Shown in pieces: positions 11,454 through 39,448 of a DNA stretch of 42,880 nucleotides. Positions within the stretch are counted from its first letter, which is position 1. Every line of letters starts with the position of its first letter. This stretch comes from a virus (lineage: Duplodnaviria > Caudoviricetes), in the IMG/VR virus record IMGVR_UViG_3300032280_000880, positions 1-42,880 of that record. One strand, written 5' to 3'. The position numbers were made by a program, and so were the translations under genes. The notes under the pieces are model-generated. The model searched no databases. It saw only the letters and a program-made list of their open reading frames with translations, and was not told where the DNA came from.

Positions 11454-11465
11454 TAAATATCTCAC

Positions 11466-13003: not shown

Positions 13004-13865
13004 CCAAGCGTTGTACCCAGCTCAGTCGATCCGGCAATTCGGGTGATTCGATCTGGCTCAGGTCCCAGTTGGCAATTGCCCAGCACTGACTGCGATCAGG
13101 ATCGGTCACAAACACCGGATATCCTTCCACAGCCGCAGCCACAGCAGGACTTGAATTGTGGTTGACCACAGCCCAGCAATTGATCAAATCCTGGCCTAAA
13201 TCTCGGTGCTGACTCACCCGAATTGGGTTTGAGATTGCGACTCCGGGCAAGGGATTCACAAGATCCAAGTAGGTGTGAAGTTTTTTGTCTCCCGGATGTG
13301 GGCGTATCACAATGGGCCGATCGGTATATCGTGCCAGCGTTTGAACAGTTTGTGTCAACCAGGAGGTGACATCAAGATCGCCCATGCTCCAGCCGCCCTG
13401 TCGCTGCAGGCATATTAGCACATGATCCCCGGTGGTTCTGTAGTCACGCAACTCAATGCCCAATCGTTGACTGATGCTGCGCCATCTAGCAGGATCCACT
13501 GGGCGATCACAGTACTCGCCAGTGTTGGGGAATATGTCATCAAAGCTGTAACGTAGATAGTGGTGTGAATTGTCAGCGTCGGCGTACAGGAACAAGTTGC
13601 TATCCACAGCCAACACTCTGCGCTGCATGCGCCGCTGTGACATGATCACGCGATTTCTCAAATCAGCATGCGGTCTTGGCCGGGCAGTTGTGGTATACCA
13701 ACCTTGAATCACAGCCACATCAGTGTGACCAACTTGATAGTCCTCAACATCCACTACTGAGTCACCCGTGATTCTCACGCCCTGTGCAAACAGTCTTAAA
13801 AGATTGACCTTTTCCCAATTGCGGCCATTGGGCACAGATCTGTGATAAACTGCCACCGTGTTCAT
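12915..13865 (-). CDS. Capsular-polysaccharide-type glycosyltransferase (KpsS-like, GT-B)
   Basis: IVIRPHP and VVNHNSSPAVAAAVEGYPVF motifs. Confidence 0.6.
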   Translation of the reverse strand: MNTVAVYHRSVPNGRNWEKVNLLRLFAQGVRITGDSVVDVEDYQVGHTDVAVIQGWYTTTARPRPHADLRNRVIMSQRRMQRRVLAVDSNLFLYADADNSHHYLRYSFDDIFPNTGEYCDRPVDPARWRSISQRLGIELRDYRTTGDHVLICLQRQGGWSMGDLDVTSWLTQTVQTLARYTDRPIVIRPHPGDKKLHTYLDLVNPLPGVAISNPIRVSQHRDLGQDLINCWAVVNHNSSPAVAAAVEGYPVFVTDPDRSQCWAIANWDLSQIESPELPDRLSWVQRLAMSHWNFQELESGECWRHMRQFVRSSSQS

Positions 13866-14533
13866 GATGGGTGTTGTGCGAGTTGTCGTTCTCGATGCCA
13901 GACATCGGCTTGGGGCACCGACTGGTACTCAGCAAAGCAAGGTGTGCCCAGGGTGTAATGCAGCAGTTTGGCCTCAGGATTAGCACCCAATTCGTCGGGC
14001 AGCCAGTTCCATTCCCGGGGCAATTCTCCAATGTCTGAGTCATCCAACCAGCCAAAGCGATGCAGATAGGATCCGGTGCTGTGTTGCACCAAGTCAGGTG
14101 TGAGTACTTGATTTTTCGCATGACCACAGTTCCACACAATCACACTGGACCAATTCTTACGCGGATAGTTGTGATTGGCATTGCCCCGGTATTTGACTGC
14201 AGAACGAGTTTGATAGTCATGTTTGACCACAGACACAGCATGTTGATCGCTCAGAAGGTCAAACAGTTCTAGGATGTCGCTCTGCAACACCATGTCACCG
14301 TCAATGAATACAGCACGACCCTGATAGTCCATGAGATAAGGCACCAAGAAACGACTGTACACAAAGGTGTTGCTGCCGTCAGTATGTGTTTCTTGATAGT
14401 CAGTCATGAGATTGAGAGCCAAGGGCACAATGGCCACAGGGGCAGAGGCCAGTCTTATGATGCTGTTGCAACACACATGGTATGCCACTGCTTCGCGTGG
14501 ATCATAGCCCACAAACACCGGGACCGGCAGCAT
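13862..14533 (-). CDS. Glycosyltransferase (GT-A, GT8-related)
   Basis: VFVGYDPRE, SRFLVPYL, FIDGDM, YPRKNWSSV, EWNWL and LHYTLGTP motifs. Confidence 0.8.
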   Translation of the reverse strand: MLPVPVFVGYDPREAVAYHVCCNSIIRLASAPVAIVPLALNLMTDYQETHTDGSNTFVYSRFLVPYLMDYQGRAVFIDGDMVLQSDILELFDLLSDQHAVSVVKHDYQTRSAVKYRGNANHNYPRKNWSSVIVWNCGHAKNQVLTPDLVQHSTGSYLHRFGWLDDSDIGELPREWNWLPDELGANPEAKLLHYTLGTPCFAEYQSVPQADVWHRERQLAQHPS

Positions 14534-14536
14534 GCC

Positions 14537-15286
14537 TTATTCCCCGTAGTGGATGAAGTTTTTGTCCAGCCAGGGCAAGATCAAGTCCGAGTGTGCCAAG
14601 TGCCCGCGCTTTAGTATGCCTTCGGCTGCTGACTCGGGCAGCAGCTGACGATCTGCCAGATCATACCAGGTGGTGGTTCTGGGATCCATGGGCTGATGTG
14701 TGCTCTTGTATGCTATGGCATGCAGCCAAGGATCCGTGGGTCGCTTGAGAAAAAATCCATTTTGACAGTCCCAACCTGACACTGCCAGTTGGTGAATGAG
14801 ACTCACAAGACTGTGATGATGATAGCATCCGTTTTGCTGTGTGTGTATCAACTGGCGACGCACAATGCTGGCTGTTTGTGGCAGGATCAACACCAACATA
14901 CCGCCATCACTGGTGGCATGCCACCAACGGCTCAAGGCAGCTACGGGATTGATACAGTACTGAAAAGCATCATGACACCACAGCACATCGAATTTGGTAG
15001 GCGGAGCATCCACAGCTTGTTCAAAGTCGTTGCGCTGATAAACTATGTTGGGATACCGATGCGCCACTGGCAAGGAATCCAGGAGGTCGATACCGGTGCA
15101 CTTGATCTCAAGTGGTTGTGGCACATCATCTCGTGTGGTGCGTGTGGCCCACCATTCCAAGTCCAGGCCAGAACCACAACCCAGGTCAGCCAAGGTGCCC
15201 ACGCTTTCCATAAAGTCGTCGTATTCGTAGAACAAGTTTAGTGTTTCGAGACTGTGCTCGTGGCTTTCATCGTGATTTTTAAACAT
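14537..15286 (-). CDS. Class I SAM-dependent methyltransferase
   Basis: LADLGCGSG, TGID, FDVLWCH and GGML motifs; start at ATG 15286. Confidence 0.8.
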   Translation of the reverse strand: MFKNHDESHEHSLETLNLFYEYDDFMESVGTLADLGCGSGLDLEWWATRTTRDDVPQPLEIKCTGIDLLDSLPVAHRYPNIVYQRNDFEQAVDAPPTKFDVLWCHDAFQYCINPVAALSRWWHATSDGGMLVLILPQTASIVRRQLIHTQQNGCYHHHSLVSLIHQLAVSGWDCQNGFFLKRPTDPWLHAIAYKSTHQPMDPRTTTWYDLADRQLLPESAAEGILKRGHLAHSDLILPWLDKNFIHYGE

Positions 15287-16331
15287 GTGACCGTTGCTCC
15301 AGTTGCGTGATTTTTTGATAACTATGCATTGGATAGTTGTCATATACCTGTTGTAGATGACGTGAATTTTGCACAAGTATTGGCCAGTATTGACATTTCA
15401 TTTCGGCCAAGTCCAGAGTCATGAGTTTTGCCACCAAGTCTACCACAACCTGTTTGCGTTGATCAGCATCCTGGATGTTGTCATAAACATGGCCATCAAA
15501 CAAGTCATCAAACATGTCAAAACCCTGGCTTCGTACCAATGCCACGGTGCCTGGGACCGAATACCAGATTGGAAATTGATGCCAGGCAAATGGTTTGAAT
15601 GATTTTTCTGTCAGAAATACACTTTTCCAGCACTGCTCGTCCTGTTGATTGGATGATTCTACCACAAGGTTGATGTATGCACGATAAAATATATCAGTGT
15701 CGGGTGCACCAGTTACTCGTTGTGCCGATGAAGAATTTCTCTCTTGTGCAATCACAATGGGAAAAGGATATGGATGCATGATGTCTTGCATGAGTTGTTG
15801 TCTGGCCTGGATCCCTGCATCGTCAGGATTTGAACCCAGGGTCAACAATACCTGATTTTGATCAAAACGCTCCAACAGCAAGCGAGCAAATCTAGCACGA
15901 TCTACACTGTCTCTACGCATGAGACACAGCAGAGCATGATCACATGATAAATTTTGCCAGTCAACTGATTGAGCTACTCGAGGCAAGTCCCCCCATCGCA
16001 CCATTCGATCAGTCAAACAAATGGCCGGATACGGTAACTGCTCAACGGATTCTTGCACAGTAAAAATCACTCTAAAATTGCAGTCTGGTACACCTTGTGC
16101 TCGGAACCAGGTGAACAGCACCCAAAGATGGCTAGAATCCAGTCCCTCCGGACCGCAGTCAATGATCCAAACATAGTGCTTGATCTGTTCCGGCAAGATA
16201 CCTTGTTGAGCACATTCTTGTACAAATTTTTCAATTACTGGTTGCCCAAAGTAGTCATAATAACTGTGTTGATACCATATGTCATAATAGATAACTCCAT
16301 GGTCACGAATGTGTATGCGCGAAACTGTCAT
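15279..16331 (-). CDS. Hypothetical protein, possible GT-B sugar transferase
   Basis: INLVVES...FLTEKSFKPF...GFDMFDD motif resembles TEK-motif GT10-like phage proteins; located in the glycosylation island. Confidence 0.5.
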   Translation of the reverse strand: MTVSRIHIRDHGVIYYDIWYQHSYYDYFGQPVIEKFVQECAQQGILPEQIKHYVWIIDCGPEGLDSSHLWVLFTWFRAQGVPDCNFRVIFTVQESVEQLPYPAICLTDRMVRWGDLPRVAQSVDWQNLSCDHALLCLMRRDSVDRARFARLLLERFDQNQVLLTLGSNPDDAGIQARQQLMQDIMHPYPFPIVIAQERNSSSAQRVTGAPDTDIFYRAYINLVVESSNQQDEQCWKSVFLTEKSFKPFAWHQFPIWYSVPGTVALVRSQGFDMFDDLFDGHVYDNIQDADQRKQVVVDLVAKLMTLDLAEMKCQYWPILVQNSRHLQQVYDNYPMHSYQKITQLEQRSHV

Positions 16332-26991: not shown

Positions 26992-27246
26992 ATATACACG
27001 CCTTGAATAATGTGTGCAACTATTTATTCAACTGTGATTTACCAACAAAGTTCAGTTTGGCAACATTGAGGCACAACTAGTACATGCGTGGGATAGACCA
27101 GTAATTCCAGGTCACTTACATTAGTAGTGTAGACAGCAAATACACAACATAGTGTATGGATTTACTGAAGTACTACTAATACTTTGTCTGGCCCAACTTG
27201 TGTCGAAGTACCTAGTAAGTATTACAGAGATCCTGGAGGATTGAAC

Positions 27247-28014
27247 TTGAACTCGATTAAAATTGCCGAAGATTTAAAAATATATCAACTGTACCAGCCC
27301 GAGCATGGTGACGATATTCCAGTCACTGCTGACCCCCGGGATCCCAGACCCTTGCATTTGGGATATGTAAACAACATTGCAACCCCACTGCCAATGGAAT
27401 ATTTGACCGGCAGTGATGCGCTGTTCCGTTATATGAGAACCACAAACTGGGAGGAGTTTTCCCAGATTTTGGGCCAACAGCAGCCCGACTCTATTGCCCT
27501 GCATGTGAGTGTGTTTGAACAGTCCGGAATCACTGCAGCGGAATTTGTCAACATGGTGGAAAGCATGGCCAGACTTGCCACACCAGGGCATCGGCCACGC
27601 ATTGCAGTTGCAATCGAAAACAACACCCGCCTGGGCACAGTGAAAGATTTAAAGGCAGCCGGAGTGTTTGGTATCATACCCTGCAACAACACATTTTCAG
27701 CAGAAGAAACTCAAGCGGGCATGACAGCCGTGGCCACAGGTGTGCCTTACTGGCCCCCACATATCCTGGATCACTTGCCGGGCAATCGCACCACTGTGAC
27801 ACAGCCCATAGACCACAACATCCGCCTGACCGATCGTCAACAACAGGTGTGTGATCTTATTTGCAATCGTGGACTCAGCAACAAACAAATTGCCCGAGCA
27901 CTCAGTCTCAGTGAGAGCACAGTAAAGATACATGTGAGTGCCATCATGCGAGCACATGGTGTGAGAAACCGAACACAACTGGCCCTGTCAGGTGGCAGTG
28001 GACTCCGGGCTTGA
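27247..28014 (+). CDS. LuxR/NarL (GerE-type HTH) transcriptional regulator with pseudo-receiver domain
   Basis: C-terminal LTDRQQQV...GLSNKQIARALSLSESTVKIHVSAIMRAHGVRNRTQL. GGAGGA SD at 27235-27240 favours TTG 27247 as the start. Confidence 0.88.
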   Translation: MNSIKIAEDLKIYQLYQPEHGDDIPVTADPRDPRPLHLGYVNNIATPLPMEYLTGSDALFRYMRTTNWEEFSQILGQQQPDSIALHVSVFEQSGITAAEFVNMVESMARLATPGHRPRIAVAIENNTRLGTVKDLKAAGVFGIIPCNNTFSAEETQAGMTAVATGVPYWPPHILDHLPGNRTTVTQPIDHNIRLTDRQQQVCDLICNRGLSNKQIARALSLSESTVKIHVSAIMRAHGVRNRTQLALSGGSGLRA

Positions 28015-28020
28015 CCCGTT

Positions 28021-28082
28021 CTAGTACAACAGTTGTGGTCATACTGAAGCCTAAACGCTCTAGGTGGTTCCGCATCTAAGTA
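28021..28082 (+). promoter_or_regulatory. Conserved upstream element, copy 1: CTAGTAC-N12-CATACTGAAGC-N25-CTAAGTA
   Basis: Same boxes and near-identical spacing as copy 2, while the spacer sequences are unrelated. Confidence 0.65.
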
Positions 28083-28129
28083 ATAGTGTAACCTAGAGTT
28101 ACCATATTTACAAGAAAAGGAAACCTATC

Positions 28130-28675
28130 ATGCTCACAACCGATCCGTTTTTTGCCCTGTTGCAAAATGTACAAGACACCAAGACCAAAGTGTCTGACAG
28201 CATATTCGAAAACTACAAGCTGCAAGTAGCACAAACCAACGACATCAACAATCGTGCCATGCAAGTGGCCTTAAACAATACATCTTCCTTTGCTGACCTC
28301 AAAGCTGCTGTGAACAAAGGCACATTGGAAACCATGTTGGCTGCACAGCGTACTGATGCTGCTATTGGCAGAGTTGCCTCTGAAACTCAACGCATGATCA
28401 TGGAACAAGGCGAAGCCACTCGTGGTTTGATCAACGCACTCAACACACAAAACTTGAACACTGCCTTGATCAACATCAATACTGCTCTCACTGGCCTCAA
28501 CGGTCAATACGGCGGTCTGGGCCTGGCCTACGGTGGTGCAGCAGCAGCCGCACAAACTGCAAGCACCAACAGTGTAATCAATGCACTCAGCAGCGCCACC
28601 AGTGGTCAGAGATTTATCAACACTGGCGTGGCCAACGCCACAGTGCAATCTTCCGAAGCCACGTCAATTGGCTGA
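28130..28675 (+). CDS. Hendecad coiled-coil protein A (N/Q/T/A-rich)
   Basis: AAGGA SD; highly similar to 28908..29468; 11-residue periodicity. Confidence 0.85.
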   Translation: MLTTDPFFALLQNVQDTKTKVSDSIFENYKLQVAQTNDINNRAMQVALNNTSSFADLKAAVNKGTLETMLAAQRTDAAIGRVASETQRMIMEQGEATRGLINALNTQNLNTALININTALTGLNGQYGGLGLAYGGAAAAAQTASTNSVINALSSATSGQRFINTGVANATVQSSEATSIG

Positions 28676-28703
28676 TCGATTTAGCTGTATACAAGCAGCC
28701 TTT

Positions 28704-28735
28704 AAAGACACTGTCACCCGCAGTGTCTTTTTTTT
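28704..28735 (+). terminator. Rho-independent terminator
   Basis: AAAGACACTG-N7-CAGTGTCTTT followed by a T-run. Confidence 0.85.
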
Positions 28736-28757
28736 GACCATGCCAGTGCTACTACCA

Positions 28758-28820
28758 CTAGTACTGGTGTGCGATCCATACTGAAGCAGGTGGGTCAACT
28801 GCCTTAGAAAGTTCTAAGTA
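28758..28820 (+). promoter_or_regulatory. Conserved upstream element, copy 2: CTAGTAC-N12-CATACTGAAGC-N26-CTAAGTA
   Basis: Matches copy 1 at 28021-28082. Confidence 0.65.
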
Positions 28821-28907
28821 TTAATGTGGCAAAGCGGAATGGTTCTGTTTTGCGCTCACATCCGGGACCAATAACCTGGAAATTTTATAATTTAAGGAAT
28901 TAATAAA

Positions 28908-29468
28908 ATGGCTGACATGACTACACTCACAACTGATCCGTTCTTTTCATTGCTGCAAAACATTCAAGACACCAAGACCAAGGTGTCCGACAGTATTTTT
29001 GAAAACTACAAACTGCAAGTGGCACAAACCAACGACATCAACAACCGCGCCATGCAAGTGGCCCTGCACGATGCAACTGCACTGGCTGACCTCAAGCAAG
29101 CCACCAGCGAAGGTGTGTTGCAAACCATGTTGGCTGCTGGTCGCACAGACGCTGCCATTGGTGCCACATCCGCTGCTCAACAACGCTTGATCATGGAACA
29201 AGGCGAAGCCACTCGTGGTCTGATCAATGGTTTGAACACACAAAACTTGAACACAGCCCTGATCAACACCAACACAGCTCTCACAGGCTTGAATGGTTTG
29301 TATGGTGGCTTGGGTCTGGCCTACGGTGGTGCTGTGGCTGCTTATCAAAGCGCCAGCACTAACAGTGCACTGAATGCGTTAAACAGCGCCATCAGCACAC
29401 AAGGCTTGGTCAACACAGGCACCATGACAGGTACTACACAGACTTCTACTCCTACCAGTATCAACTAA
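28908..29468 (+). CDS. Hendecad coiled-coil protein B
   Basis: TAAGGA SD; shares the identical block QDTKTKVSDSIFENYKLQVAQTNDINNRAMQVAL with protein A. Confidence 0.85.
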   Translation: MADMTTLTTDPFFSLLQNIQDTKTKVSDSIFENYKLQVAQTNDINNRAMQVALHDATALADLKQATSEGVLQTMLAAGRTDAAIGATSAAQQRLIMEQGEATRGLINGLNTQNLNTALINTNTALTGLNGLYGGLGLAYGGAVAAYQSASTNSALNALNSAISTQGLVNTGTMTGTTQTSTPTSIN

Positions 29469-29483
29469 TCAAGGAGTATCTCT

Positions 29484-29663
29484 ATGTATAGATCTACATG
29501 GGGTTACGGCGGCTGGGGAGGTTGGGGAGGCTACGGCGGCTACGGCGGCTGGGGCTACCCTAGAGGATACTTGGCAGCTGGCATAGGTTATCCCTATCAA
29601 GGCGGCTGGGGTTCTTTTTATCCCTACTATAGCTACGGCTATGGTGGCTATCCGTTAATCTAA
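29484..29663 (+). CDS. Gly/Tyr/Trp-rich microprotein (59 aa)
   Basis: Missed by the ORF track. AAGGAG SD at 29471. Sequence MYRSTWGYGGWGGWGGYGGYGGWGYPRGYLAAGIGYPYQGGWGSFYPYYSYGYGGYPLI. Confidence 0.8.
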   Translation: MYRSTWGYGGWGGWGGYGGYGGWGYPRGYLAAGIGYPYQGGWGSFYPYYSYGYGGYPLI

Positions 29664-29674
29664 GCAAATCAACC

Positions 29675-29706
29675 AGTGAGTTGGGTAACACCAACTCACT
29701 TTTATT
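29675..29706 (+). terminator. Hairpin, probable terminator or attenuator
   Basis: AGTGAGTTGG-N6-CCAACTCACT followed by TTTATT. Confidence 0.7.
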
Positions 29707-29729
29707 ATAACAACAAAAAGGGGCACAAC

Positions 29730-29948
29730 ATGTACACAGGTTATTTGTATCCATATTATAGAAGTTTTCCTTATCCCTATCCAGCCTATGGCTATCCCGC
29801 ATGGGGCTACGGCGGTGTTTGGGGTGGTTATGGCAATTATTCTGCCAACAACATAATTGGCAGTGCCGTGGCCAATCAAAGTCTCATCAACACCGGCACA
29901 GCAGCCGGTATCAATCAAATTGCCACGCCCACAGTAATTGGCTGGTAA
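29730..29948 (+). CDS. Tyr/Pro/Gly-rich small protein (72 aa)
   Basis: AAGGGG SD; MYTGYLYPYYRSFPYPYPAYGYPAWGYGG...; C-terminal motif shared with the two coiled-coil proteins. Confidence 0.8.
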   Translation: MYTGYLYPYYRSFPYPYPAYGYPAWGYGGVWGGYGNYSANNIIGSAVANQSLINTGTAAGINQIATPTVIGW

Positions 29949-29963
29949 ACCGGGAATACCAAC

Positions 29964-30662
29964 ATGTATAAAAAAGTCACACACAGTATTGTGGAAGAGC
30001 ACTTTGACCATCCCATGGCTCAAGAGATCAAGAAGATGGTGGATTCTGGTAAAAAGGTGGAAGCGGCATGGCCACCAACACCAAAGTCACAGGAACTCTT
30101 TAATCAATTGAGATTGCAGTTTGATCAATTTAACACAGCCTTGCGCAATGTGATTGTAGGATCTGGTACTAATGATCCTGCTCTGACTTACAACAAACAA
30201 CAGTTGTCGGCGCTGACTGCTCAATTTGGTTCATTTTTTGAACCCTACTACGGACAATCAGCTGCTGAAGCTGCGGTAGGGCACATTGCTGAATTTGCCA
30301 AGGCCATTGAAGACACTATCTCTGTTGCTGCAGCTAAAGGAGACTGGAATACTCCTGCCGCTGCTGCACTCGATCATTTGAATGCCTTGGCTGCTTTGTT
30401 GACTTCATGGAATCCTGCATATTGGAACAATCGATATCCCAGTCTTGTCACATATTTTTTGCAGTACTACCAAGCTGTTGTGAATCAAATCAGTGCGCGA
30501 GCTGATCAAGATTGGACCAAGGATGCAGTGCAGGCATTTTCTGCCAGGCAAATTGTTGCCAACGGTCCATTGACATTTGCACCATTTAACGGAGCACCAG
30601 ATTTGTCTGGCCAGTTATCAACCATGATAATTCAACAGTTTCCTGACAAGATTAAACCATAA
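29964..30662 (+). CDS. Helical-bundle hypothetical protein with MYKK...EEH N-terminal tag
   Basis: FFEPYYG, WNPAYW, ARADQDW.KD and IIQQFP motifs; paralog of the next gene. Confidence 0.8.
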   Translation: MYKKVTHSIVEEHFDHPMAQEIKKMVDSGKKVEAAWPPTPKSQELFNQLRLQFDQFNTALRNVIVGSGTNDPALTYNKQQLSALTAQFGSFFEPYYGQSAAEAAVGHIAEFAKAIEDTISVAAAKGDWNTPAAAALDHLNALAALLTSWNPAYWNNRYPSLVTYFLQYYQAVVNQISARADQDWTKDAVQAFSARQIVANGPLTFAPFNGAPDLSGQLSTMIIQQFPDKIKP

Positions 30663-30668
30663 ATCATC

Positions 30669-31346
30669 ATGTACAAAAAAATCACTCGCGACATTCAGGA
30701 AGAACACTACGGTGCTGCCATGATATCGCCTAACCCAGGTGTTCTTCCTCCGCTACCGAGTGCAGTGATTAATGAACGTACCCTGGTGTTTAGGATGGAT
30801 TCTCGCACCCATTGGACCAGATATTCCTTGGGCATGATCAACTACTCGGTCAGTAGACTGGGCAATCTTGACAGCACACCTGCTGTGGAACGAAATCTCA
30901 GCAGAAATGCCAACTTCATTGGTGACTTCTTTGTGCCCTACTATGGCATCACTTCGGGTACCAAGATTGGCAATCTGTTGAATGTGATCACGCTCAACGG
31001 TGTCAAGGTGGTAGAAGCCTTGGTGGATAAAAAAGACATTGAAGTGTATCGAACCATCTGGGACAAGCAGATCTATGAGTGGGCTGACTATCTCAATCAG
31101 CAAAATCCCTCCTACTATCCACGAGACCTGCTGATAGAAATGATGACCAATCTCACTGCGTTCTGGGTGGAGGATTTCCAGGCCAGAATAGACAGCGACT
31201 TTGCTGCTGACTCAGTGGCCTTGGACAACATACTCAAGGTGGCTGTGACTGGCATACCCAATCATGTGAACCGTGGTTACTCCAGCATAGCCGACATACT
31301 CAGTCGAGGCATAGTGGCACAGTTTCCACTGTCGTTTACTGAATAG
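30669..31346 (+). CDS. Helical-bundle hypothetical protein with MYKK...EEH N-terminal tag
   Basis: FFVPYYG, QNPSYY, ARIDSDFAAD and GIVAQFP motifs. Confidence 0.8.
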   Translation: MYKKITRDIQEEHYGAAMISPNPGVLPPLPSAVINERTLVFRMDSRTHWTRYSLGMINYSVSRLGNLDSTPAVERNLSRNANFIGDFFVPYYGITSGTKIGNLLNVITLNGVKVVEALVDKKDIEVYRTIWDKQIYEWADYLNQQNPSYYPRDLLIEMMTNLTAFWVEDFQARIDSDFAADSVALDNILKVAVTGIPNHVNRGYSSIADILSRGIVAQFPLSFTE

Positions 31347-31360
31347 TCCAGGAGCCAGCC

Positions 31361-31597
31361 ATGTCAGTAATCACCATTGATAAAGGCAAAAACATTGAGT
31401 TTGTGGACCTGGAAGCACATGTTGTGATGGCCCAGCAACGATATCGTGCCTTGGAAGATCGTATTGCTCGCAGCGAAGTTGAAATTGCCAAAATCAACGA
31501 TCGCAATCGAATGTTCATGAGAATTTTGCTGGGTGCAGCGGCCAGTCTGGTAACAGGCACTGCACTCAGCGTGCTGAGCATGATCTTGGGAAAATAA
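31361..31597 (+). CDS. Small coiled-coil protein with C-terminal transmembrane anchor
   Basis: AGGAG SD; LEAHV..AQQRYRALEDRI coiled coil followed by hydrophobic ILLGAAASLVTGTALSVLSMIL. Confidence 0.75.
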   Translation: MSVITIDKGKNIEFVDLEAHVVMAQQRYRALEDRIARSEVEIAKINDRNRMFMRILLGAAASLVTGTALSVLSMILGK

Positions 31598-31598
31598 C

Positions 31599-32336
31599 AT
31601 GACCACCGAAGCTGAATTTGTGGAAATACGCCGGCGCATGGAAATGTTGAAGCTGGCTAGACATCTGCTAAACGAAGACTATCTCAAACAACGAGCCGCT
31701 GCCTACACCCAGTGGACCACTGACAGTGACCATGCCTGGAAAACTCGGGGTGTGAAATTGCCGTTCCCGCCGGTGCCCGCCATGCCATCCGAAGCAGATG
31801 TGGTGGCTCGTGCTCTACAGTTGTACAATCATGTGAATGCCCAGGCTGCACCAGCATCGCCACCAGCACCTGCTGCAGCGCCTGCAGTATCAACACTACA
31901 GCCAGAGCCAGTTGCAGCCACTTCTGTGCCTGCAGCAGAGCCTGAGCCTGTGATCGAACCCGAACTCATGGCCGAACCTGAACCGGAGCCAACTCCCGAA
32001 CCTGTAGTGGCGCCAGAACCAACTCCAGAACCAACTCCAGAACCAACTCCAGAACCAACTCCCGAGCCAGTGTCTGTGCCAGTGCCTGCAATTGAAACGG
32101 TGTTGCCCGTGAGCAGACCCGAAACTGTGTACACTGAACAAGTGAAGAAAATTTTCGAAACACCCTCACCTGCAATTGATCCACCCCTGGATCAGGCCGT
32201 GGAGAGCTTGGTGCAAGCCGAAACTGAGAACAATCGAGCTCTGGTGCCCATGATTCGTGGCTTGATTGAAAAGGGATTTTTGCAACTGGGACACCGACTG
32301 GGGCAAAACAAAACCAACAAAAAGGAAACTGACTAA
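31599..32336 (+). CDS. Hypothetical protein with Pro/Glu-rich linker
   Basis: Helical N-domain (RMEMLKLAR...PSEADVVARA.QLY) followed by (PEPT)n repeats. Confidence 0.75.
   Translation: MTTEAEFVEIRRRMEMLKLARHLLNEDYLKQRAAAYTQWTTDSDHAWKTRGVKLPFPPVPAMPSEADVVARALQLYNHVNAQAAPASPPAPAAAPAVSTLQPEPVAATSVPAAEPEPVIEPELMAEPEPEPTPEPVVAPEPTPEPTPEPTPEPTPEPVSVPVPAIETVLPVSRPETVYTEQVKKIFETPSPAIDPPLDQAVESLVQAETENNRALVPMIRGLIEKGFLQLGHRLGQNKTNKKETD
32013..32060 (+). repeat. Tandem repeat (CCAGAACCAACT)x4 encoding PEPT
   Basis: Four perfect 12-bp units with degenerate flanking copies. Confidence 0.9.
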
Positions 32337-32806
32337 TGTTTAACAATTTTTTAATGTATCGCTCGTTTGGTCCCAGAAGACCCCTGGCACGCAGACCCTT
32401 GGCACGCAGACCAGCGTTTCCAGTGATAGCACAGTTCGGCGGCGGGGGATCAGACTTTTTTGTCAATGGTGGATCAGGACCACCCGGCCCACCCGGCCCA
32501 CCCGGCCCACCCGGTAATCCCAGTCCAGTAGCAGTAACGGATGTGGTTACCGCAACCTACACAGCACTGGCCACTGATTACTTTTTGTGTGTGCTAACCA
32601 ATGGTTTGGTCACTATCACCTTGCCTGCAGGCACACTGGGCCGAGTCTACATGGTGAAAGATTGCTTTGGTGCTGCGGCCACAAATCCAATTACCATACA
32701 AGGCACTGGGGGGCAACTGGTTGATGGTGCTGCCTCGGCCACCATCAACACCAATTTTGGTAGCTTGCAGTTTGTGTTCAATGGCACCGGTTGGAGCATT
32801 GTGTAA
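32336..32806 (+). CDS. Short collagen-like protein with C-terminal beta domain
   Basis: RRPLA-type repeats and (GPP)4, then YTA..TDY...TITLPAG..GRVY.VKD...DGA...IN..FGSL...W. Confidence 0.8.
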   Translation: MFNNFLMYRSFGPRRPLARRPLARRPAFPVIAQFGGGGSDFFVNGGSGPPGPPGPPGPPGNPSPVAVTDVVTATYTALATDYFLCVLTNGLVTITLPAGTLGRVYMVKDCFGAAATNPITIQGTGGQLVDGAASATINTNFGSLQFVFNGTGWSIV

Positions 32807-33360
32807 TGAGTTACAAGTCACCCTTGGCCACCAATGCTACACCTGGCATTGTGACACCGGGCACCAATCTCACAGTCAGTAGTGGTGTGATTGATGTCAC
32901 ACCAGTGGCATTGTTCAACCAAGCATATTTCTTCAGCACAGTGACTCAGACCAACCCTGTGGCCAATGCTGTCAATATCGCAACCTTCAACAATAGTGCC
33001 ATCAATGTGGGCATCACCCTGGTGGCAGGTTCACAGATCACAGTGAGTCGCAATGCCAACTATAACTTTCAATTTGTCATCCAGGGTGACAAGACCGATG
33101 CTGGCACTGATCTAGCTGATATTTGGATTCGCCGTAATGGCGTGGATTATCCCGACACCAACAGTCAAATTTCCATCACAGGTGGAGCAGGAGTGTTGGT
33201 GGCATCATGGAATTTTACTCTGGCATTGACTGCCGGAGACACAGTACAAATTGTCTGGCAGAGTTCTGACACTGCCTTGCGATTTTTGTCAGTACCCGCA
33301 CAGGTTGGTCCTGTGCGACCTGTGACACCTAGTGTGAGATGCACTATTATTCAACTATAA
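32806..33360 (+). CDS. BclA-C/C1q-like jelly-roll domain protein
   Basis: TAATG-coupled start; F.STVTQ...F......GI......ITV....YN.QF..Q...IW.R.NG...L.AGD.VQI.W pattern. Confidence 0.6.
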   Translation: MSYKSPLATNATPGIVTPGTNLTVSSGVIDVTPVALFNQAYFFSTVTQTNPVANAVNIATFNNSAINVGITLVAGSQITVSRNANYNFQFVIQGDKTDAGTDLADIWIRRNGVDYPDTNSQISITGGAGVLVASWNFTLALTAGDTVQIVWQSSDTALRFLSVPAQVGPVRPVTPSVRCTIIQL

Positions 33361-33371
33361 AAGGAAACAAA

Positions 33372-33770
33372 ATGTCATATACCAACAATCCAAGAAGCAT
33401 ACTGGCAGGAGCCGGTATTGCCATTACCCCCACTACAGGCACCGGTGCCGAAGTTGTGACCATCAGCACCAGCGGTGTTCAAACTGTGGCTGTGAGAATT
33501 GCTGTGGCCACTCCGGTCACTGTGGTCAACACCGATGACTTGGTCAGCGTACAAGTACCCGGTCCAGTGGCAGTGGCAGTCAACTTGCCTGCAGGTGTCA
33601 CGGGTCGTCAATTCACCATCAAGGATGGCTTGGGATTGGCTGCTCCGGCAACCCCCATCACAATCACGCCAGCAGCTGGCACAATTGACGGTGCTGCCAC
33701 AGCCACAATCAATGCCCCTTATGGTTCGCTCACTCTGGTGTACACTGGTGTTGAGTGGCAGTTGATCTAA
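33372..33770 (+). CDS. Fibre-like beta-domain protein, paralog of the 32336 C-domain
   Basis: AAGGA SD; VNLPAG..GRQF.IKD..G.A....ITI......IDGA...IN.PYGSL.LVY.G.EW. Confidence 0.8.
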   Translation: MSYTNNPRSILAGAGIAITPTTGTGAEVVTISTSGVQTVAVRIAVATPVTVVNTDDLVSVQVPGPVAVAVNLPAGVTGRQFTIKDGLGLAAPATPITITPAAGTIDGAATATINAPYGSLTLVYTGVEWQLI

Positions 33771-33779
33771 GGCACTGAC

Positions 33780-34253
33780 ATGGCCTACAATAGACCACCA
33801 CAAGTGACCTTGGCCGGAGTGGCCTTACGACAAAATCCCCCGCCCACGGTGGTGCAGCCTGCTGGCATTGTGCCTGTCACACTGGATGCCGAAATTGCCA
33901 CTACCACCAGCTTGGGCGTGGTGCAGGTGGGCAATGGTCTTGCTATCACACCAGCGGGTGTGCTATCGGCCACTGGCGGCGGCGACTGTTGCCAGGTCAA
34001 TACAAAAATCACTCGCAATAGTTACACCGCTACTGCGAGCGATTGCTTTATTGGTGCCACTGAAAAAAACATTACCATAACACTGCCAAAAGGCGTGGAT
34101 GGCAAAGTTTACTATATCAAAAATCGAGCAAATGGCAGCATCACAGTCAAAGCAGCCAGTGGCGAAGGTATAGATGGTAGTTCATCTAAAACACTAGGAA
34201 CCAGCGGCAGTCTCATACTGATATTTGCCGATGATTGCTGGAACATCATGTAA
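33780..34253 (+). CDS. Fibre-like beta-domain protein, third paralog
   Basis: ATTTSLGVVQVGNGLAITPAGVLS tail-fibre-type repeat, then DCC and ITITLPKG..GKVYYIKN...IDG...W. Confidence 0.8.
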   Translation: MAYNRPPQVTLAGVALRQNPPPTVVQPAGIVPVTLDAEIATTTSLGVVQVGNGLAITPAGVLSATGGGDCCQVNTKITRNSYTATASDCFIGATEKNITITLPKGVDGKVYYIKNRANGSITVKAASGEGIDGSSSKTLGTSGSLILIFADDCWNIM

Positions 34254-34262
34254 GGTAAAATC

Positions 34263-34793
34263 ATGTACAAAAAAGTCACACACAATATCACAGAAGAACA
34301 TTTTGAGCATCCCATGGCTGCTCAAGTATTTGGTGCCGCTGCGGCCTACACTAGACCTGCCAAGTACCCGGATGGCACTGCCATTCCAGAGTCATTGCCG
34401 CCCAGCTATCAACCAGCCTGGCGTGGGCAAGCACCAAGTGGGCAAAAATGCCGCAACTGCAAGAACTATGATGCTGCCACAAGTATTTGCCTTGGCTGGA
34501 ATGCCCCTGTGAGACCGGGTTGGTGGTGCGCAGCCTGGGACAGTACCATGCCGAAAACAGCCAGCAGTGCTTGGATGATATATGACCAAGATGAAGACAT
34601 GATTGTGCTGGATGTGCCACTCATGATCAGAATCATGGAATATGCTCGAGAACAAGCAGCCACGGACCAAGAACTGCACACAATTGCAAAAAAGATGATC
34701 CGGTTGGTCAACCAAGAGGGTGAGTTGACCATGGATCACTACCGGGACATAGTGGGTGAGACTACACCTGCGTATGTGCCCGAAGCCAAGTGA
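34263..34793 (+). CDS. MYKK...EEH-tagged protein with HiPIP-like Cys4 domain
   Basis: Y...QKCRNC-x9-C-x12-CAAW with V.PGWWC; C-terminal LDVPLMIRIMEYARE helical domain. Confidence 0.7.
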   Translation: MYKKVTHNITEEHFEHPMAAQVFGAAAAYTRPAKYPDGTAIPESLPPSYQPAWRGQAPSGQKCRNCKNYDAATSICLGWNAPVRPGWWCAAWDSTMPKTASSAWMIYDQDEDMIVLDVPLMIRIMEYAREQAATDQELHTIAKKMIRLVNQEGELTMDHYRDIVGETTPAYVPEAK

Positions 34794-35542
34794 GACAGTT
34801 CCTTCTAAAATCCAGTCCCCGAGATGATCGGGACTGGATCTATCAAAGATCTGATCTAACTCCGCAACCCAAGGTAGATTTGCGAGAGTGGGACAGTGCT
34901 GTGGACAGTCAATTGGATCTAGGCAGTTGTGCCGGCAATGCCATGGCCAATGCCTACGAGCTGCAGGTTCGGAGACAAGCACCCGAAAACTTTGTGGAAC
35001 TGAGTCGCCTGTTCATCTACTACAATGCACGAGCAATTGACAACAGCATCGATCAAGATACCGGAGCCTATCTCAGAGATGTGATCAAGGCCGTGCGAGA
35101 CCATGGCATCTGCAGTGAAGCGTTGTGGCCGTACAATGTAGAAAACTTTGCAGTGAGACCCAGTGACGAAAGTTTTGAGGATGCCCGGTCAAGATCCTTG
35201 CGCAACTACCGCAAACTAGACACCATCGATGACACTGTGGACGCCTTGAGTCAACTGCGTCCTGTGATATTTGGCATGGAAATTTATGCCAGTTTCATGC
35301 GAGTAAACGCCGAGAATCCTGTGGTACCCATGCCCGAGCCCGATGAACAGGGTCGAGGTGGACATGCCATGTGCATGGTGGGATATAGACTGCCCGAGCG
35401 ACAATTCTTGGCCAAAAACAGTTTTGGCACTGCCTGGGGAGATCAGGGCTACTGTTGGATTCCGTTTGAATATCTAGAACAGCAAGGTTACGACCGCTGG
35501 GTGTTTGATATTTGGAATCCGGTGCTGGATCGTGTCAGTTAA
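34790..35542 (+). CDS. Papain-like cysteine peptidase (C1A)
   Basis: VDLR, Q..LGSC, SRLFIYY, GGHAMCMVGY and KNSFGTAWGDQGY motifs (catalytic Q/C/H/N present). Confidence 0.92.
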   Translation: MRQFLLKSSPRDDRDWIYQRSDLTPQPKVDLREWDSAVDSQLDLGSCAGNAMANAYELQVRRQAPENFVELSRLFIYYNARAIDNSIDQDTGAYLRDVIKAVRDHGICSEALWPYNVENFAVRPSDESFEDARSRSLRNYRKLDTIDDTVDALSQLRPVIFGMEIYASFMRVNAENPVVPMPEPDEQGRGGHAMCMVGYRLPERQFLAKNSFGTAWGDQGYCWIPFEYLEQQGYDRWVFDIWNPVLDRVS

Positions 35543-35925
35543 AAGCCCCGGAACGGTGTTACAGGACTGGTGACGCTCACATCCTCAGCTTCGTCACTGG
35601 TCATGGTGCCAATTCGAACTGCACTGCTGGCGGGCATGCCCATGGCATGCAGCGCATCATGAATGTAGTCGACCACATGCGGATCATAGCTGATCACAAT
35701 TTCGTTTTCGCCAAACACTGATTCCCGACCCGCAAAGTCAGGAACGCTGTCTTGGGCACGCTGGGCAGCACCTTTGGCTCCGGCAATGGCCACACCAAAA
35801 CGATACTGCAGGTAAGGGTCTTGATTTTTCAGTGCCGGTATCTTGAACGCACCGGGCAAGGCACGGCCCACATCCGGGGCAATTGACCCCACACGGCTTT
35901 CCGACACAAATTCTCTAGCTCTCAC
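35539..35925 (-). CDS. Probable head-internal protein (MRAREFVSE N-terminus)
   Basis: Paralog of the next ORF (shared Y...R...A.A.A and S.E...V...SPV..F.GF motifs). Confidence 0.65.
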   Translation of the reverse strand: MRAREFVSESRVGSIAPDVGRALPGAFKIPALKNQDPYLQYRFGVAIAGAKGAAQRAQDSVPDFAGRESVFGENEIVISYDPHVVDYIHDALHAMGMPASSAVRIGTMTSDEAEDVSVTSPVTPFRGF

Positions 35926-36296
35926 CGGAATCCACCAAATCCTTGAACTGGGCTTTGTTTATTGGTAGATTTCACTTCCTCACTGTCCAGATCACCGCTG
36001 TTGAGATCTTCCCAGTTGGCACCTGCTGCCTTGAATGCTTGTTTGAGCATGTTTTGTTCAACCCGGGTATAGGGATGTGCAGTTCGATTTTTACCAACCC
36101 AGGATTCAGAATCCATTTCAACTGGTGTGTCGGTGCCGTCAGCACAGGCCACAGCCATCATGACTCGATTGAGAGTGTAGTCATTGTTGATGTTTTTGTG
36201 GCCGTCGGTAAAGGTGTCAAGACCAACTGTGGCATAGCGATTGCGTGCCGAGAGTTTGCCCATTTTTTCTTCGGCCACAAACTCCCGGGCTCGCAT
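35922..36296 (-). CDS. Probable head-internal protein (MRAREFVAE N-terminus)
   Basis: N-terminus resembles a capsid-targeting sequence; paralog of the previous ORF. Confidence 0.65.
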   Translation of the reverse strand: MRAREFVAEEKMGKLSARNRYATVGLDTFTDGHKNINNDYTLNRVMMAVACADGTDTPVEMDSESWVGKNRTAHPYTRVEQNMLKQAFKAAGANWEDLNSGDLDSEEVKSTNKQSPVQGFGGFR

Positions 36297-36301
36297 GTTG
36301 A

Positions 36302-39300
36302 TCAACCCTTGAACTGTTGCAGTTCGCGGAACAAACGACCAGCGTGAGACTCAACACTTTCGGCCATTGCCGGCTGTGGTGCCACAGCAGACATGCTGGC
36401 TGTTACCATTGCGCCTGGCACTCGAGAAAAAGCATTCAAGAAATCTCGGAAGTACATGGGGTTGCTGGCTTGACTCATGTCTGGACCACGATAGTTGTCA
36501 AATGACTTGAATCCCTTGGCTGGGTCATCTAGACCAAGACCAGTGGCTTGCAATGAGGTAACTTGTGTTTCCAGTCTGGGATCTCTCAACCACTCAGCTG
36601 CTGATTTTTTCTCGGTTTGGCCAGCGCCTTCTGCCATGGCTGGCTGTGTGCTAGCTGGTGACATAAAAGCAGTTACCATTGCACCAGGAACTCGAGCAAA
36701 AGCGTTCAAGAACTCTTCAAAGTGAGCCGGGTCACTGGCTTGACTCATGTCTGGACCACGGAAGTTGTCAAATGACTTGAATCCTTTGGCTGGGTCATCT
36801 AGACCAAGACCAGTGGCCTGCAATGACTTGGCCTGTTTCAGAGCAGGATCTCGCAACCACTCAGCTGGTGCTTTTTTCACAGCTTGATCTGCGCCTTCGG
36901 CTAGGTCTGCCTCTGCCAACTCATCAAGACGGCCCAGCATGGAAGCCATGCTTTCAGGCAAGTTGGGTTCAGCGTGTTTGCCCAAGGATGCTTTGATACT
37001 GTGTTTGAGACGCTCAGGTTGACTGCTACGATACTCGTCCGAATATTTGTGTTTGCTACGGGGATGATTGCCAGCAGGAATTTCACTGTAATCGGTTTGG
37101 CCAGGGCGAGCAAATTTGTTGACACTGTTGATACCTGTTCTTGCCATCAGTCGATCATCTTCCAGCATGGTCATGTCGTAGTTGCCATATCCGCTGGTCA
37201 TGCTTTCATCATCAAATTCCCAGGACATCACGCACTTGCCATTGATATAACCACGAATTTCCCGACCTGCTGAGTGCTCTTCTACATCATCAAAAGAATC
37301 TGCATCAAACTTGCCAATAAAATCATCAAAACTGTCATAGTGTTCGCCGTCATCGGCCTGCAGGTCTTCTGCCATGATTTGCTCATTCATGTCGTCCTTG
37401 TACATGCCTTTGCCCAAGCCAGCCAGTTCAGACAGTCGACCCAGGCCAACTTCTTCCAGTTGATCGCCGGAGTCGCAAGTGCAACCGGACTCGTCTTCTT
37501 GGTTGGGCAATGCATAGTATCCATGAACTGGGCACTCGTCGTCTTGATCTTCTTTCATGACACCTTGACGCGGTTCTTGAAGATTTGGCGGAGCATCCAC
37601 AGTTTGACCCGAGCTCTTGTTGCGATTCAAATCATTGCTGATGGGATCAGTTGACAGTTTCATGTCCTGGTATTCAGGCTCAGTGGGCCAGTCGGCTGCG
37701 TTTTCGTCCACAACTTCGGCGCAACCACAGGGTGCCTGACCACAGGCAGCACAGGCATGTGCACCGGTATCGGCACCCATGTTTACACCTGCACGGCTCA
37801 ACATCATGGCCAATTCTGCTGCATCATCGTCAGTGGCTGTGACTGTGACGCTTTTTTGAGGGCCACCGTGTGGATCAGTGCTCATGGACACATTGATGTT
37901 CATGCTTTCGGAAATCATGCTTTCCAGTTCACGGTTCAGGCTGTCATAAATGCCCTTGCCCACCACAGAGGAGCCACTGGACTTTTTCTTGCCCTCTGGC
38001 TTGCTGTCAGAGGCCTCTGAACTGGTGGCCACTGAGCCTGCTGTGGTACCAGATTCTTCCACATCCTTTGATTTTTTCTTGCCTTCGGATTTCTTTTTCT
38101 CAGGCAGGCCTTCATGCTTGGTACTGGCAAAATCTTCTGCGTCTTTCTTGCCCATTGACCGAGCTGTTTTGGCAACTTCTTTTGACGCAGGCTTTTCACC
38201 CTTTTGAGCAGCATGTACCATGCCCATGAACTTTTGTTGCTTTTTGCTCACAGCTTTTTCTTCCAAGGGAGTCACAGTGTAGCCACATTCTTCCAGGGCT
38301 GCAATTGCTTCTTCGATCTCTTCGGGATTCAACAACTTGCTGTTGCCGCTAGGGCCTTTGGCACCTGTACTTTTGCCAGTGCCCTTGGGTCGACCGCGAC
38401 CACGCGGGCCACTTGAGGATGCAGCATCACCGTCGGCACCCACTGACATGCCTTCGGGATCCACCCTGCGTGTTACCATGCGACCAGTTGAGGTATGCTT
38501 GATATCATGCTTGGCGCCGTGTTGGGTATCGCCCTTTTTTGCCATGCCAGCTCTGCGCTTGACATCGTTCAACATATCGTCCCAGTTTTCTTCAACTGGT
38601 TCACCGTGACCGCCCAAGGCAGCTTTCATGGCTTCAGCAGCAACATCGCCCAGCATTTCGTCTACTTCTTTTTTGGCACCGGCAATCTTGTCGGCAAAAG
38701 TAACTTTGTCTCGGGGTTCAGCCAAGGCAGCAAATGACTTTTGCTTGGCTGTCATTGGCATACCACCTTCTTCTTTAACTGGGAATTCTTCGTCGCCCAA
38801 TTTGAAACTGTCTTGGCCACGGGCTTTGGCTTGTTGTGCTTTGAAGTGCATGACTCCAGAGCCTTCTTCCATGTCGCCCTCGGGCAAATTGGGCTCTGCA
38901 TGTGTTCCATGCGCATCTTTGATACTGCCTTTGAGACTGGTTATTTGATCTCTTGATGGCATACCTTTTCTTTTGCCGGCTGTGTTGATGTTGTGTTTGA
39001 TGCCTGTACGACCAATACCGGATCCTGTGGTCAAGGGATCAGTTGACGGAAACTCACTTTGAACTCCACCTGTTCTACGCTTTTGTCCAGGATCATTTTT
39101 GGGTCTCAGTGGAATTTCGTAACCATAGCCGATGTTGTCATATTCATCACTGTCCCCGGGTTCTTGAGTGTACAGTTGATCTTTGTACTTGGGATCACGC
39201 CACTTGGCTGCTTCTTCTATATCAGCTTCTTCCAGCTGACCAGCTTTTTTCATCTTTTGAAACTGAGCACCTGCCACACGCTCGCCAGCGGCCTTTGAGC

Positions 39301-39448
39301 CATATTTTTTGGCAGCTTTGTTAGCCAAGGCCTTGAAGCCAGTGGTGGCATTGTTGTGCTTGCCCATGTCACGCTCGGTGAGCTGAGTGGGTTCGGCGCG
39401 GTTTTCAACTGCATCGAGACGTTTAAAGAGATCGTAGAAAAAAGTCAT
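36302..39448 (-). CDS. Large low-complexity modular protein (1048 aa), probable protease-processed head protein
   Basis: Alternating basic and acidic modules separated by [LMIV]-x-E sites; DUF3008-like KAVSKKQQKFMG...FASTKHEGLPEK module; internal duplications. Confidence 0.65.
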   Translation of the reverse strand: MTFFYDLFKRLDAVENRAEPTQLTERDMGKHNNATTGFKALANKAAKKYGSKAAGERVAGAQFQKMKKAGQLEEADIEEAAKWRDPKYKDQLYTQEPGDSDEYDNIGYGYEIPLRPKNDPGQKRRTGGVQSEFPSTDPLTTGSGIGRTGIKHNINTAGKRKGMPSRDQITSLKGSIKDAHGTHAEPNLPEGDMEEGSGVMHFKAQQAKARGQDSFKLGDEEFPVKEEGGMPMTAKQKSFAALAEPRDKVTFADKIAGAKKEVDEMLGDVAAEAMKAALGGHGEPVEENWDDMLNDVKRRAGMAKKGDTQHGAKHDIKHTSTGRMVTRRVDPEGMSVGADGDAASSSGPRGRGRPKGTGKSTGAKGPSGNSKLLNPEEIEEAIAALEECGYTVTPLEEKAVSKKQQKFMGMVHAAQKGEKPASKEVAKTARSMGKKDAEDFASTKHEGLPEKKKSEGKKKSKDVEESGTTAGSVATSSEASDSKPEGKKKSSGSSVVGKGIYDSLNRELESMISESMNINVSMSTDPHGGPQKSVTVTATDDDAAELAMMLSRAGVNMGADTGAHACAACGQAPCGCAEVVDENAADWPTEPEYQDMKLSTDPISNDLNRNKSSGQTVDAPPNLQEPRQGVMKEDQDDECPVHGYYALPNQEDESGCTCDSGDQLEEVGLGRLSELAGLGKGMYKDDMNEQIMAEDLQADDGEHYDSFDDFIGKFDADSFDDVEEHSAGREIRGYINGKCVMSWEFDDESMTSGYGNYDMTMLEDDRLMARTGINSVNKFARPGQTDYSEIPAGNHPRSKHKYSDEYRSSQPERLKHSIKASLGKHAEPNLPESMASMLGRLDELAEADLAEGADQAVKKAPAEWLRDPALKQAKSLQATGLGLDDPAKGFKSFDNFRGPDMSQASDPAHFEEFLNAFARVPGAMVTAFMSPASTQPAMAEGAGQTEKKSAAEWLRDPRLETQVTSLQATGLGLDDPAKGFKSFDNYRGPDMSQASNPMYFRDFLNAFSRVPGAMVTASMSAVAPQPAMAESVESHAGRLFRELQQFKG
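36359..36897 (-). repeat. Imperfect tandem duplication with about 270 bp period inside the 1048-aa ORF
   Basis: GGCTTGACTCATGTCTGGACCACG at about 36467 and 36737; EWLRDP...SLQATGLGLDDPAKGFKSFDN.RGPDMSQAS occurs twice in the protein. Confidence 0.9.

Follow-up and report, generated by a model that had tools for sequence, protein, structure and literature searches.

A cassette of 15 plus-strand open reading frames (ORFs; g01–g15, positions 27247..35542) in the IMG/VR virus record IMGVR_UViG_3300032280_000880 is a conserved mobile module of uncultured large phages. The window analysed here is the entire record, 42,880 bases in length. The cassette is genuine and widespread. In the literature searched, subscription journals and supplements being outside the scope, we found no paper on such a cassette; a preliminary description of this DNA had likewise recognised no phage system of this composition. 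We infer its function from sequence, and our preferred reading, held tentatively and at somewhat below an even chance, is that the module turns itself on late during infection to make an accessory coat or hair of fibres, which would most probably sit on the virion. New in this account are the promoter logic, the wider rod family, the exclusivity of a peptide tag and the bacterial ancestry of a pair of helical bundles. The features are as follows (all on the + strand; HTH, helix-turn-helix).

27163..27221, +: g01 promoter, TACT at -53 and -36, variant late core TAAGTA at 27216; possibly autoregulated
27247..28014, +: g01, NarL/CsgD-type LuxR regulator, 255 residues, diverged N-terminal domain, C-terminal HTH
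28040..28082, +: g02 promoter, CATACTGAAGC box (TACT at -35), TAAGTA core at 28077
28130..28675, +: g02, rod paralog, 181 residues, uncharged C-terminal tail
28704..28738, +: terminator-like hairpin 3′ of g02, z -5.8
28762..28820, +: g03 promoter, TACT at -53, CATACTGAAGC box (TACT at -36), TAAGTA core at 28815
28822-28910, +: structured g03 5′ leader, stable hairpins, z -3.6; similar leaders in relatives
28908..29468, +: g03, main rod subunit, 186 residues, Q/N/S/T/G-rich tail
29484..29663, +: g04, Gly/Tyr microprotein, 59 residues, 24% Y, 36% G
29675..29708, +: terminator-like hairpin 3′ of g04, z -4.9
29730..29948, +: g05, Tyr-rich microprotein, 72 residues, C-terminus formed by the rod's tail
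29964..30662, +: g06, helical bundle, MYKK tag
30669..31346, +: g07, helical bundle, MYKK tag, all-helical model
31361..31597, +: g08, coiled coil with C-terminal hydrophobic helix, predicted membrane anchor
31599..32336, +: g09, conserved N-terminal domain of ~80 residues, variable Pro/Glu/Thr tail
32336..32806, +: g10, basic Arg/Pro leader, short collagen, gp9/gp10 XD-type domain
32806..33360, +: g11, short shaft and C1q/TNF-fold knob
33372..33770, +: g12, XD-type adaptor, T4 gp10 E 6e-5
33780..34253, +: g13, shaft repeat and XD-type domain
34263..34793, +: g14, MYKK tag, HiPIP-like four-Cys domain, small helical domain
34790..35542, +: g15, papain-family (C1A) cysteine protease, Cys/His/Asn motifs, 3OIS E 1.6e-35

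The preliminary description had placed 15 co-oriented genes on the strand opposite to their surroundings, inserted among head and packaging genes. The ORFs lie at the coordinates it gave, with minus-strand genes on both sides (nuclease, radical SAM and TerL genes to the left; virion, head-closure and tail-tube-like genes to the right). The head and packaging surroundings hold for the present genome but not elsewhere: a structural PHROG was the best match of only 4 of 91 flanking proteins at 21 other loci (109 proteins were listed; 18, for the most part short or overlapping ORFs, did not enter the count). Because the flanks vary between loci while the cassette persists, the block travels as a unit. 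A search with g03 found 42 close IMG/VR loci with the same gene order (duplicates included). Among the 24 loci flanked left and right by 1.2 kb or more of sequence, near-duplicates kept and the g10, g12 and g13 labels overlapping, we counted the rod in 24, g05, a bundle and g10 in 23 each, g09 in 21, g13 in 19, the LuxR gene, g08 and g12 in 18 each, the papain gene in 16, g11 in 15 and g14 in 12. At 17 further metagenome loci with adequate downstream DNA, the bundle, g05 and g09 were present in all 17, g08 and g13 in 16, g10 in 14 and the papain gene in 13. Library matches within the cassette are few: a LuxR HTH in g01, Peptidase_C1 in g15 and weak gp9/gp10-type matches for g10, g12 and g13.

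The rods extend this distribution. A profile of the rods led to 105 representatives of a wider family, many of them longer (200–450 residues) with the same C-terminal part (hhalign 99.65%, E 4.7e-25), and the family comprises at least 1037 clusters at 90% identity (8000 candidates scored). It is found at 58 viral loci, on contigs of up to 400 kb, where a g10-like collagen/XD gene accompanies the rod in 53, a papain gene in 30 and a LuxR gene in 18 (duplicates included); distant loci read by eye contain Tyr-rich microproteins with and without the tail. The synteny search in IMG/VR that the preliminary description had proposed as a check finds the module co-conserved at both the 42 close and the 58 distant loci. 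The minimal core is a rod plus a collagen/gp10-type XD protein, usually with a second XD protein, a protease and a Tyr-rich peptide. Scans of rod alignments against Pfam and PHROG gave scattered coiled-coil matches and no convincing family; no Reb, gas-vesicle or polyhedron-envelope family was among the matches listed (25 of 65 families in one scan). At two loci (L189:9971-10615 and L190:9860-10520) a rod-family gene stands without other cassette genes, in L189 near tail-fibre genes, one of which has a g11-like match.

By its TerL the present phage is nearest to PA5oct, Paride, Atu_ph07 and GAP32 (51% identity to the Pseudomonas phages PA5oct and Paride, 49% to Atu_ph07), and the cultured TerL relatives infect Proteobacteria, which suggests a host of that kind. 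Where the sequencing runs that contain the stretch name a habitat, it is a freshwater or lake metagenome. Searches of INPHARED with g03, query protein P0209, g12 and the bundle of locus L004 gave no match, nor did a plasmid search with P0209 or a metagenome scan with query P0230.

The cassette likely carries its own on-switch in g01, judging by the gene's sequence and by the promoters. The C-terminal HTH of g01 matches Pfam GerE (E 1e-13), its best solved relative is NarL (E 5e-7; recognition helix ESTVKIHV versus ESTVKVHV in NarL), and a match to the CsgD model (E 2e-10) falls below the cut-off. The earlier label of a GerE/LuxR regulator thus holds for the HTH; the protein, however, is not a bare GerE but a 255-residue NarL/CsgD-type regulator with a long, diverged N-terminal domain, in which no Pfam receiver match was seen. 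A possible start is the TTG at 27247, 7 nucleotides 3′ of GGAGG, and 6 of 55 distinct g01 homologs are shorter than 100 residues. Directly upstream of the minus-strand structural genes of the window stands ATAAATA/TAAATA, which the T4 late promoter core resembles. The g01, g02 and g03 promoters have TAAGTA in place of TAAATA, with tandem TACT words upstream of the cores at about -35 and -53 (NarL sites start with TAC), and CATACTGAAGC is common to the g02 and g03 promoters; on the plus strand from the g03 promoter to g15 there is no additional core. TACT at -37..-32 occurs at 19 of 38 cassette promoters as against 34 of 575 other cores, and at 20 of 27 new LuxR-bearing metagenome loci.

The variant core of the rod promoter (TAAGTA/TTAACTA) is almost confined to loci with a LuxR gene. 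Among close loci it is present in 23 of 27 with the gene versus 1 of 7 without, among distant loci in 16 of 17 versus 0 of 24 (background 3%), and it recurs in 24 of 27 new metagenome loci; the exact box TACYnnnGC was found, in the set in which it originated, at 17 of 27 loci with LuxR and 0 of 7 without. A scan for sigma-70 promoters stayed at chance level (13 versus 10.4±3.2). Codon bias is strongest in g02 and g03 among the 27 window genes tested, and the g02 leader hairpin is no more stable than shuffled sequences. In the scheme we propose, g01 would bind the tandem TACT boxes and activate, along with itself, a weak form of the phage late promoter in which TAAGTA/TTAACTA replaces TAAATA. 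The rods g02 and g03, plus g04 ahead of the internal terminator, would then be the abundant products and g05–g15 minor read-through products, their expression lowered by the hairpin after g04. A weak variant late promoter that needs g01 would make the module optional and conditional. Contigs from RNA libraries of two lake metatranscriptomes cover parts of g01–g05, g07, g09, g11 and g14; such contigs cannot show transcription or its level, and we do not use them as evidence.

The rods and the microproteins are linked by a common tail. As first described, g02 and g03 are coiled-coil paralogs (78% identical as DNA) and g04 is a Gly/Tyr-rich microprotein; in 33 of 34 loci the gene 3′ of the rod encodes a Tyr-rich microprotein, in most cases with the motif RGYL(A/G)AGIG(Y/F)PY. 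Over their final ~30 residues, g02, g03 and g05 carry almost no charge and abound in Q/N/S/T/G. When 33 loci are compared, the tail of the microprotein matches that of the rod from its own locus with a score of 82, compared with 60±2.7 in 20,000 permutations, the partial correlation given rod-body identity is 0.50, and a one-residue insertion is common to both tails. In the window, rod and g05 tails use the same codon at 5 of 14 identical residues, which favours selection on the protein over recent copying of DNA. We propose that the rods polymerise through this tail and that g05 co-assembles by the same means, so that Tyr/Gly-rich segments would enter the polymer. Rods, microproteins and bundles contain no Cys.

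The preliminary description also listed four collagen/BclA-C/fibre-like proteins (g10–g13). The C1q/BclA-C fold is borne out for g11, but collagen is present in g10 only (four GPP triplets, longer in some relatives), and g10, g12 and g13 instead end in a T4 gp9/gp10 XD-type domain (profile A6: T4 gp10 E 6e-5, tail-fibre connector E 0.029, tailspike E 0.15, with PHROG baseplate matches). The C1q/TNF domain of g11 has the fold of BxpB and BclA. Its VIA ranking runs BxpB 17.7, ExsF 17.0, F-BclA 16.9, BclA 16.7, cyanophage A4 16.0 and A-1(L) fibre 15.6; Foldseek puts cyanophage A4 first, spore proteins are the top matches of a profile search, and the nearest annotated sequence relatives are 13 phage records, including Acinetobacter phage phiAC-1 gp44, whose gene lies directly 3′ of the major head gene. 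In our proposal, trimeric g10–g13 would supply branches and adhesive tips through their XD adaptors, collagen and knob. The same three XD domains, which resemble T4 gp9/gp10 and tailspike TSP4, the knob like those of cyanophage A4 and A-1(L) fibres and the late-type promoter would also suit an ordinary extra set of tail or baseplate fibres, a branched receptor-binding complex in which the rods are fibritin-like whiskers or chaperones and form no higher-order polymer. That explanation seems to us improbable: the proteins are very short, the cassette has no large receptor-binding or enzymatic spike, the rod has no PHROG family, and the regulator, the Tyr/Gly peptides, the co-varying tail, the cassette-private tag and the protease would be left unexplained. 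XD domains of this type occur in T4 gp9/gp10 and in branched tailspike complexes (TSP4), and C1q-fold knobs on the fibres of cyanophage A4, A-1(L) and phi812, yet the cassette proteins differ in being stand-alone miniatures, mobile and outside baseplate genes (structural flanks 4/91), and the cassette adds a regulator, a protease, rods, Tyr/Gly peptides and private tags.

A second tag marks other members. When its N-terminal sequence MYKKITHxIVEEHF was scanned as DNA across IMG/VR, it was found in 37 stretches and on 38 distinct proteins (33 bundles, 3 of g14 type and 2 near tag-only), all 38 with other cassette genes within 2.5 kb and none outside cassettes. The peptide tags that the preliminary description saw in different members are real: the rod tail in g02, g03 and g05, and the MYKK tag on bundles and g14. 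We propose that this tag recruits the helical bundles and the Fe-S-like protein. It might instead be a capsid-targeting propeptide (MYKKITHxIVEE), the tagged bundles and Fe-S protein being packaged as head-internal cargo for delivery to the next host on ejection; the tag lies at the N-terminus, with basic residues ahead of I-x-E-E, it sits on unrelated bodies including near tag-only peptides, and T4 capsid-targeting sequences are comparable in the available part of one source (PMC9026906). The restriction of all 38 tagged proteins to cassettes, the different starts of neighbouring non-cassette genes (MRAREF.., MKLFKEY..) and the presence of rods and knobs, for which cargo offers no role, make this the least probable of the readings considered here. 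The genes at 35539-36305 start with MRAREF, like capsid-targeting propeptides.

The g07 model is an all-helical bundle (pLDDT, predicted local distance difference test, 89.8) with no specific match among solved structures in the PDB. Over their full length g06 and g07 are homologous to an unnamed bacterial family (hhalign 99.94%, E 8.6e-37), whose members carry four His in 74 of 79 copies and are mostly secreted-type and stand-alone, whereas 48 of 62 phage copies have none of the four and 4 keep three. The phage pair descends from this four-His family, having mostly lost the histidines and now bearing the MYKK tag. The bacterial family is widespread (at least 589 confirmed among 600 stretches), has no convincing Pfam family and no solved relative that we could find, is labelled 'acetylglutamate kinase', 'glycosyltransferase' or hypothetical in its records, and is likely a metal- or cofactor-binding protein. 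A spore context was considered and set aside, as the best 80 of at least 589 loci, a sample biased to Bacillota by the Paenibacillus lead sequence, had no conserved neighbour and no other cassette gene. One of two plasmid contexts opened looked spore-related, and on a B. mycoides plasmid a cytoplasmic Tyr/Cys-rich bundle copy lies near DUF1657 and sugar-transfer genes.

The g14 protein has four invariant Cys in 11 sequences. The four-Cys motif is compatible with its earlier designation as HiPIP-like, with weak profile matches (PioC E 0.042, HiPIP E 0.1, Pfam HIPIP in 3 of 11 members); it has no export signal, and cluster binding is putative. The papain protease was identified correctly: g15 matches Pfam Peptidase_C1 (E 1.5e-10), its closest PDB entry is 3OIS (E 1.6e-35) with Cys, His and Asn all aligned, and the three catalytic motifs recur among 34 distinct homologs (GSC in 33, NSxG in 33, His by a narrow pattern in 25). 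Papain-type preference fits Tyr-Arg and Tyr-Lys starts (MYRS, YRS, MYKK), and we propose that g15 trims leaders.

The strongest hydrophobic stretch of the cassette, and its only strong hydrophobic helix, is in g08, which is the likely starting point of assembly at the inner membrane; signal peptides were seen on none of the cassette proteins. This anchor, the conditional regulator, the lack of export signals and the uncharged co-varying tail common to rod and g05 could also point to a scaffold inside the infected cell or in its envelope that would remodel the cell, or to the rod and g05 tails as an amyloid signalling pair directed at host defence, neither being a particle component. We regard this as very improbable, as adhesin-type knobs and XD adaptors, which make little sense in the cytoplasm, accompany the rod in 53 of 58 distant loci, and library scans of the cassette found neither an NLR nor an effector domain.

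We favour an accessory coat or hair of fibres on the virion because adaptors and knob resemble those of phage fibres, the promoter is of late type and none of the proteins is exported. What is directly observed is co-conservation, the promoter pattern, the g07 and g11 folds, the co-variation of the tails and the confinement of the tag to cassettes, and from these we infer every assembly step. The likely benefit would be attachment, clumping or persistence in dilute water. Several points weigh against such a coat. No such structure has been seen, the cassette is rarely found beside structural genes, and neither the rod nor g12 has a match in INPHARED, which includes hairy cultured phages of the same group. 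Virion fibres do not usually come with an activator of their own or a membrane anchor, and the amyloid character of the tail is putative, judged from composition. On the promoter side, the exact box TACYnnnGC was not replicated in the distant family (1 of 17 versus 0 of 26), where a post hoc test gave only a looser TACT/AGTA enrichment, and loci with and without LuxR are partly separate lineages, so that the p-values of the contrasts are inflated.

The idea of the preliminary description, a self-assembling shell or fibre layer, is thus partly supported: we prefer the virion coat and keep as a rival the bulk matrix or shell, occlusion-body- or cyst-like, that would embed many virions or encase the infected cell and be matured or dissolved by the protease. 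We consider it unlikely, and retain it because of the bulk-expression signals on g02 and g03, conditional control by an own activator with a variant promoter, the Tyr/Gly-rich peptides, the predicted anchor g08 and the mobile placement apart from structural genes. The spore proteins that head the VIA and profile rankings of g11 and the tag-linked assembly of F-ENA, F-Anchor and F-BclA, in the available part of PMC12357932, also speak for it. On the other side, there is no Cys-rich lattice protein, and no Cys in rods and microproteins; XD domains and the nearest relatives of g11 are virion-type, the spore and phage C1q scores are only 1–2 Z apart, and the nearest bundle homologs are stand-alone and secreted-type. 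Unlikely as well is a bolder form, an optional developmental programme of giant freshwater phages whose own activator would switch on the bulk production of an amyloid-tailed rod polymer. Together with Tyr-rich cross-linkable peptides and exosporium-like knobs, this polymer would enclose the progeny virions, or the cell as it dies, in a resistant body that the protease later opens. Plain fibres, scaffold or signalling, and head cargo account for fewer parts than the coat or matrix readings do.

Comparison with known systems places the cassette apart from each. Like the Bacillus exosporium nap and endospore appendages (ENA; BclA-BxpB/ExsF, F-ENA, F-Anchor and F-BclA, as far as the available part of PMC12357932 describes them), it has a C1q/BclA-C-fold domain, but it is phage-encoded, its main subunit is a helical rod, and it has T4-type XD domains. 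Moreover, it contains no ExsY/CotY/CsxA-type Cys-rich lattice protein and no DUF4183 fibre subunit. Where the exosporium has a long collagen stalk with a leader, g10 has four triplets and no NCBIfam or Pfam leader match, and in place of the stand-alone GerE and sporulation sigma factor of a spore former the cassette has a NarL-type g01 of 255 residues and phage late-type promoters. With curli and Fap, as set out in the available part of PMC5135000, it has in common a dedicated regulator (CsgD), major and minor subunits with a common Q/N/G/S motif and, for Fap, a cysteine peptidase in the operon (FapD). It differs in having one terminal motif instead of 3–5 repeats and a mostly helical subunit, and in g15 being C1A where FapD is a C39 peptidase (same source); signal peptides, N-terminal hydrophobic segments and a secretion pore gene are absent from the cassette. 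Hair-like fibres are reported on Atu_ph07 (PMC7824862) and CBB (PMC5259590), and the genes for the CBB whiskers are not identified in the available part of the latter source. The whiskers of the jumbo phages CBB, 121Q and Atu_ph07 are accessory fibres in the same broad lineage as the present phage by TerL (available parts of PMC5259590 and PMC7824862), yet no INPHARED record matches the rod. In short, the cassette is organised like an exosporium/ENA or curli/Fap operon and is a member of neither, and it has gp10-type domains but is no baseplate module.

Some individual loci and other parts of the window deserve mention. In locus L027 (2643-3440) the cassette is collapsed: LuxR and the rod precede an in-frame fusion of g04 with the end of the papain gene. 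Either a natural deletion or an error of assembly would account for this, and a genuine deletion would mean that the module is dispensable. Nucleotide-sugar epimerase genes adjoin the cassette in L002, L011 and L042, a possible link to glycosylation or chance. An extra gene of ~385–426 residues (cluster c70) stands among the fibre genes at approximately L004:12240-13480 and L033:6600-7780, and phosphate-binding, P-II and ammonium-transporter-like genes, read by eye, flank the cassette in L164 (7250-14795), which hints at nutrient-linked regions. In the window itself, 36302-39448 encodes an acidic mosaic protein of 1048 residues in which one segment is DUF3008-like and a C-terminal repeat is duplicated, and 9922-16331 holds, on both strands, glycosyltransferase and 2OG-Fe(II) oxygenase matches and several unannotated genes, possibly for DNA or surface modification.

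The usual view of tailed-phage virion structure is that of a late programme that does not vary. A mobile cassette that is widespread and brings along both an activator and a variant late promoter implies that morphogenesis of a particle or matrix can be optional, with two product forms from one genome. On a modest reading, the cassette provides concrete genes behind jumbo-phage accessory fibres, along with a new protein system that self-assembles; the bold reading, if true, would make it the source of a bacteriophage occlusion or persistence body, or a viral spore.

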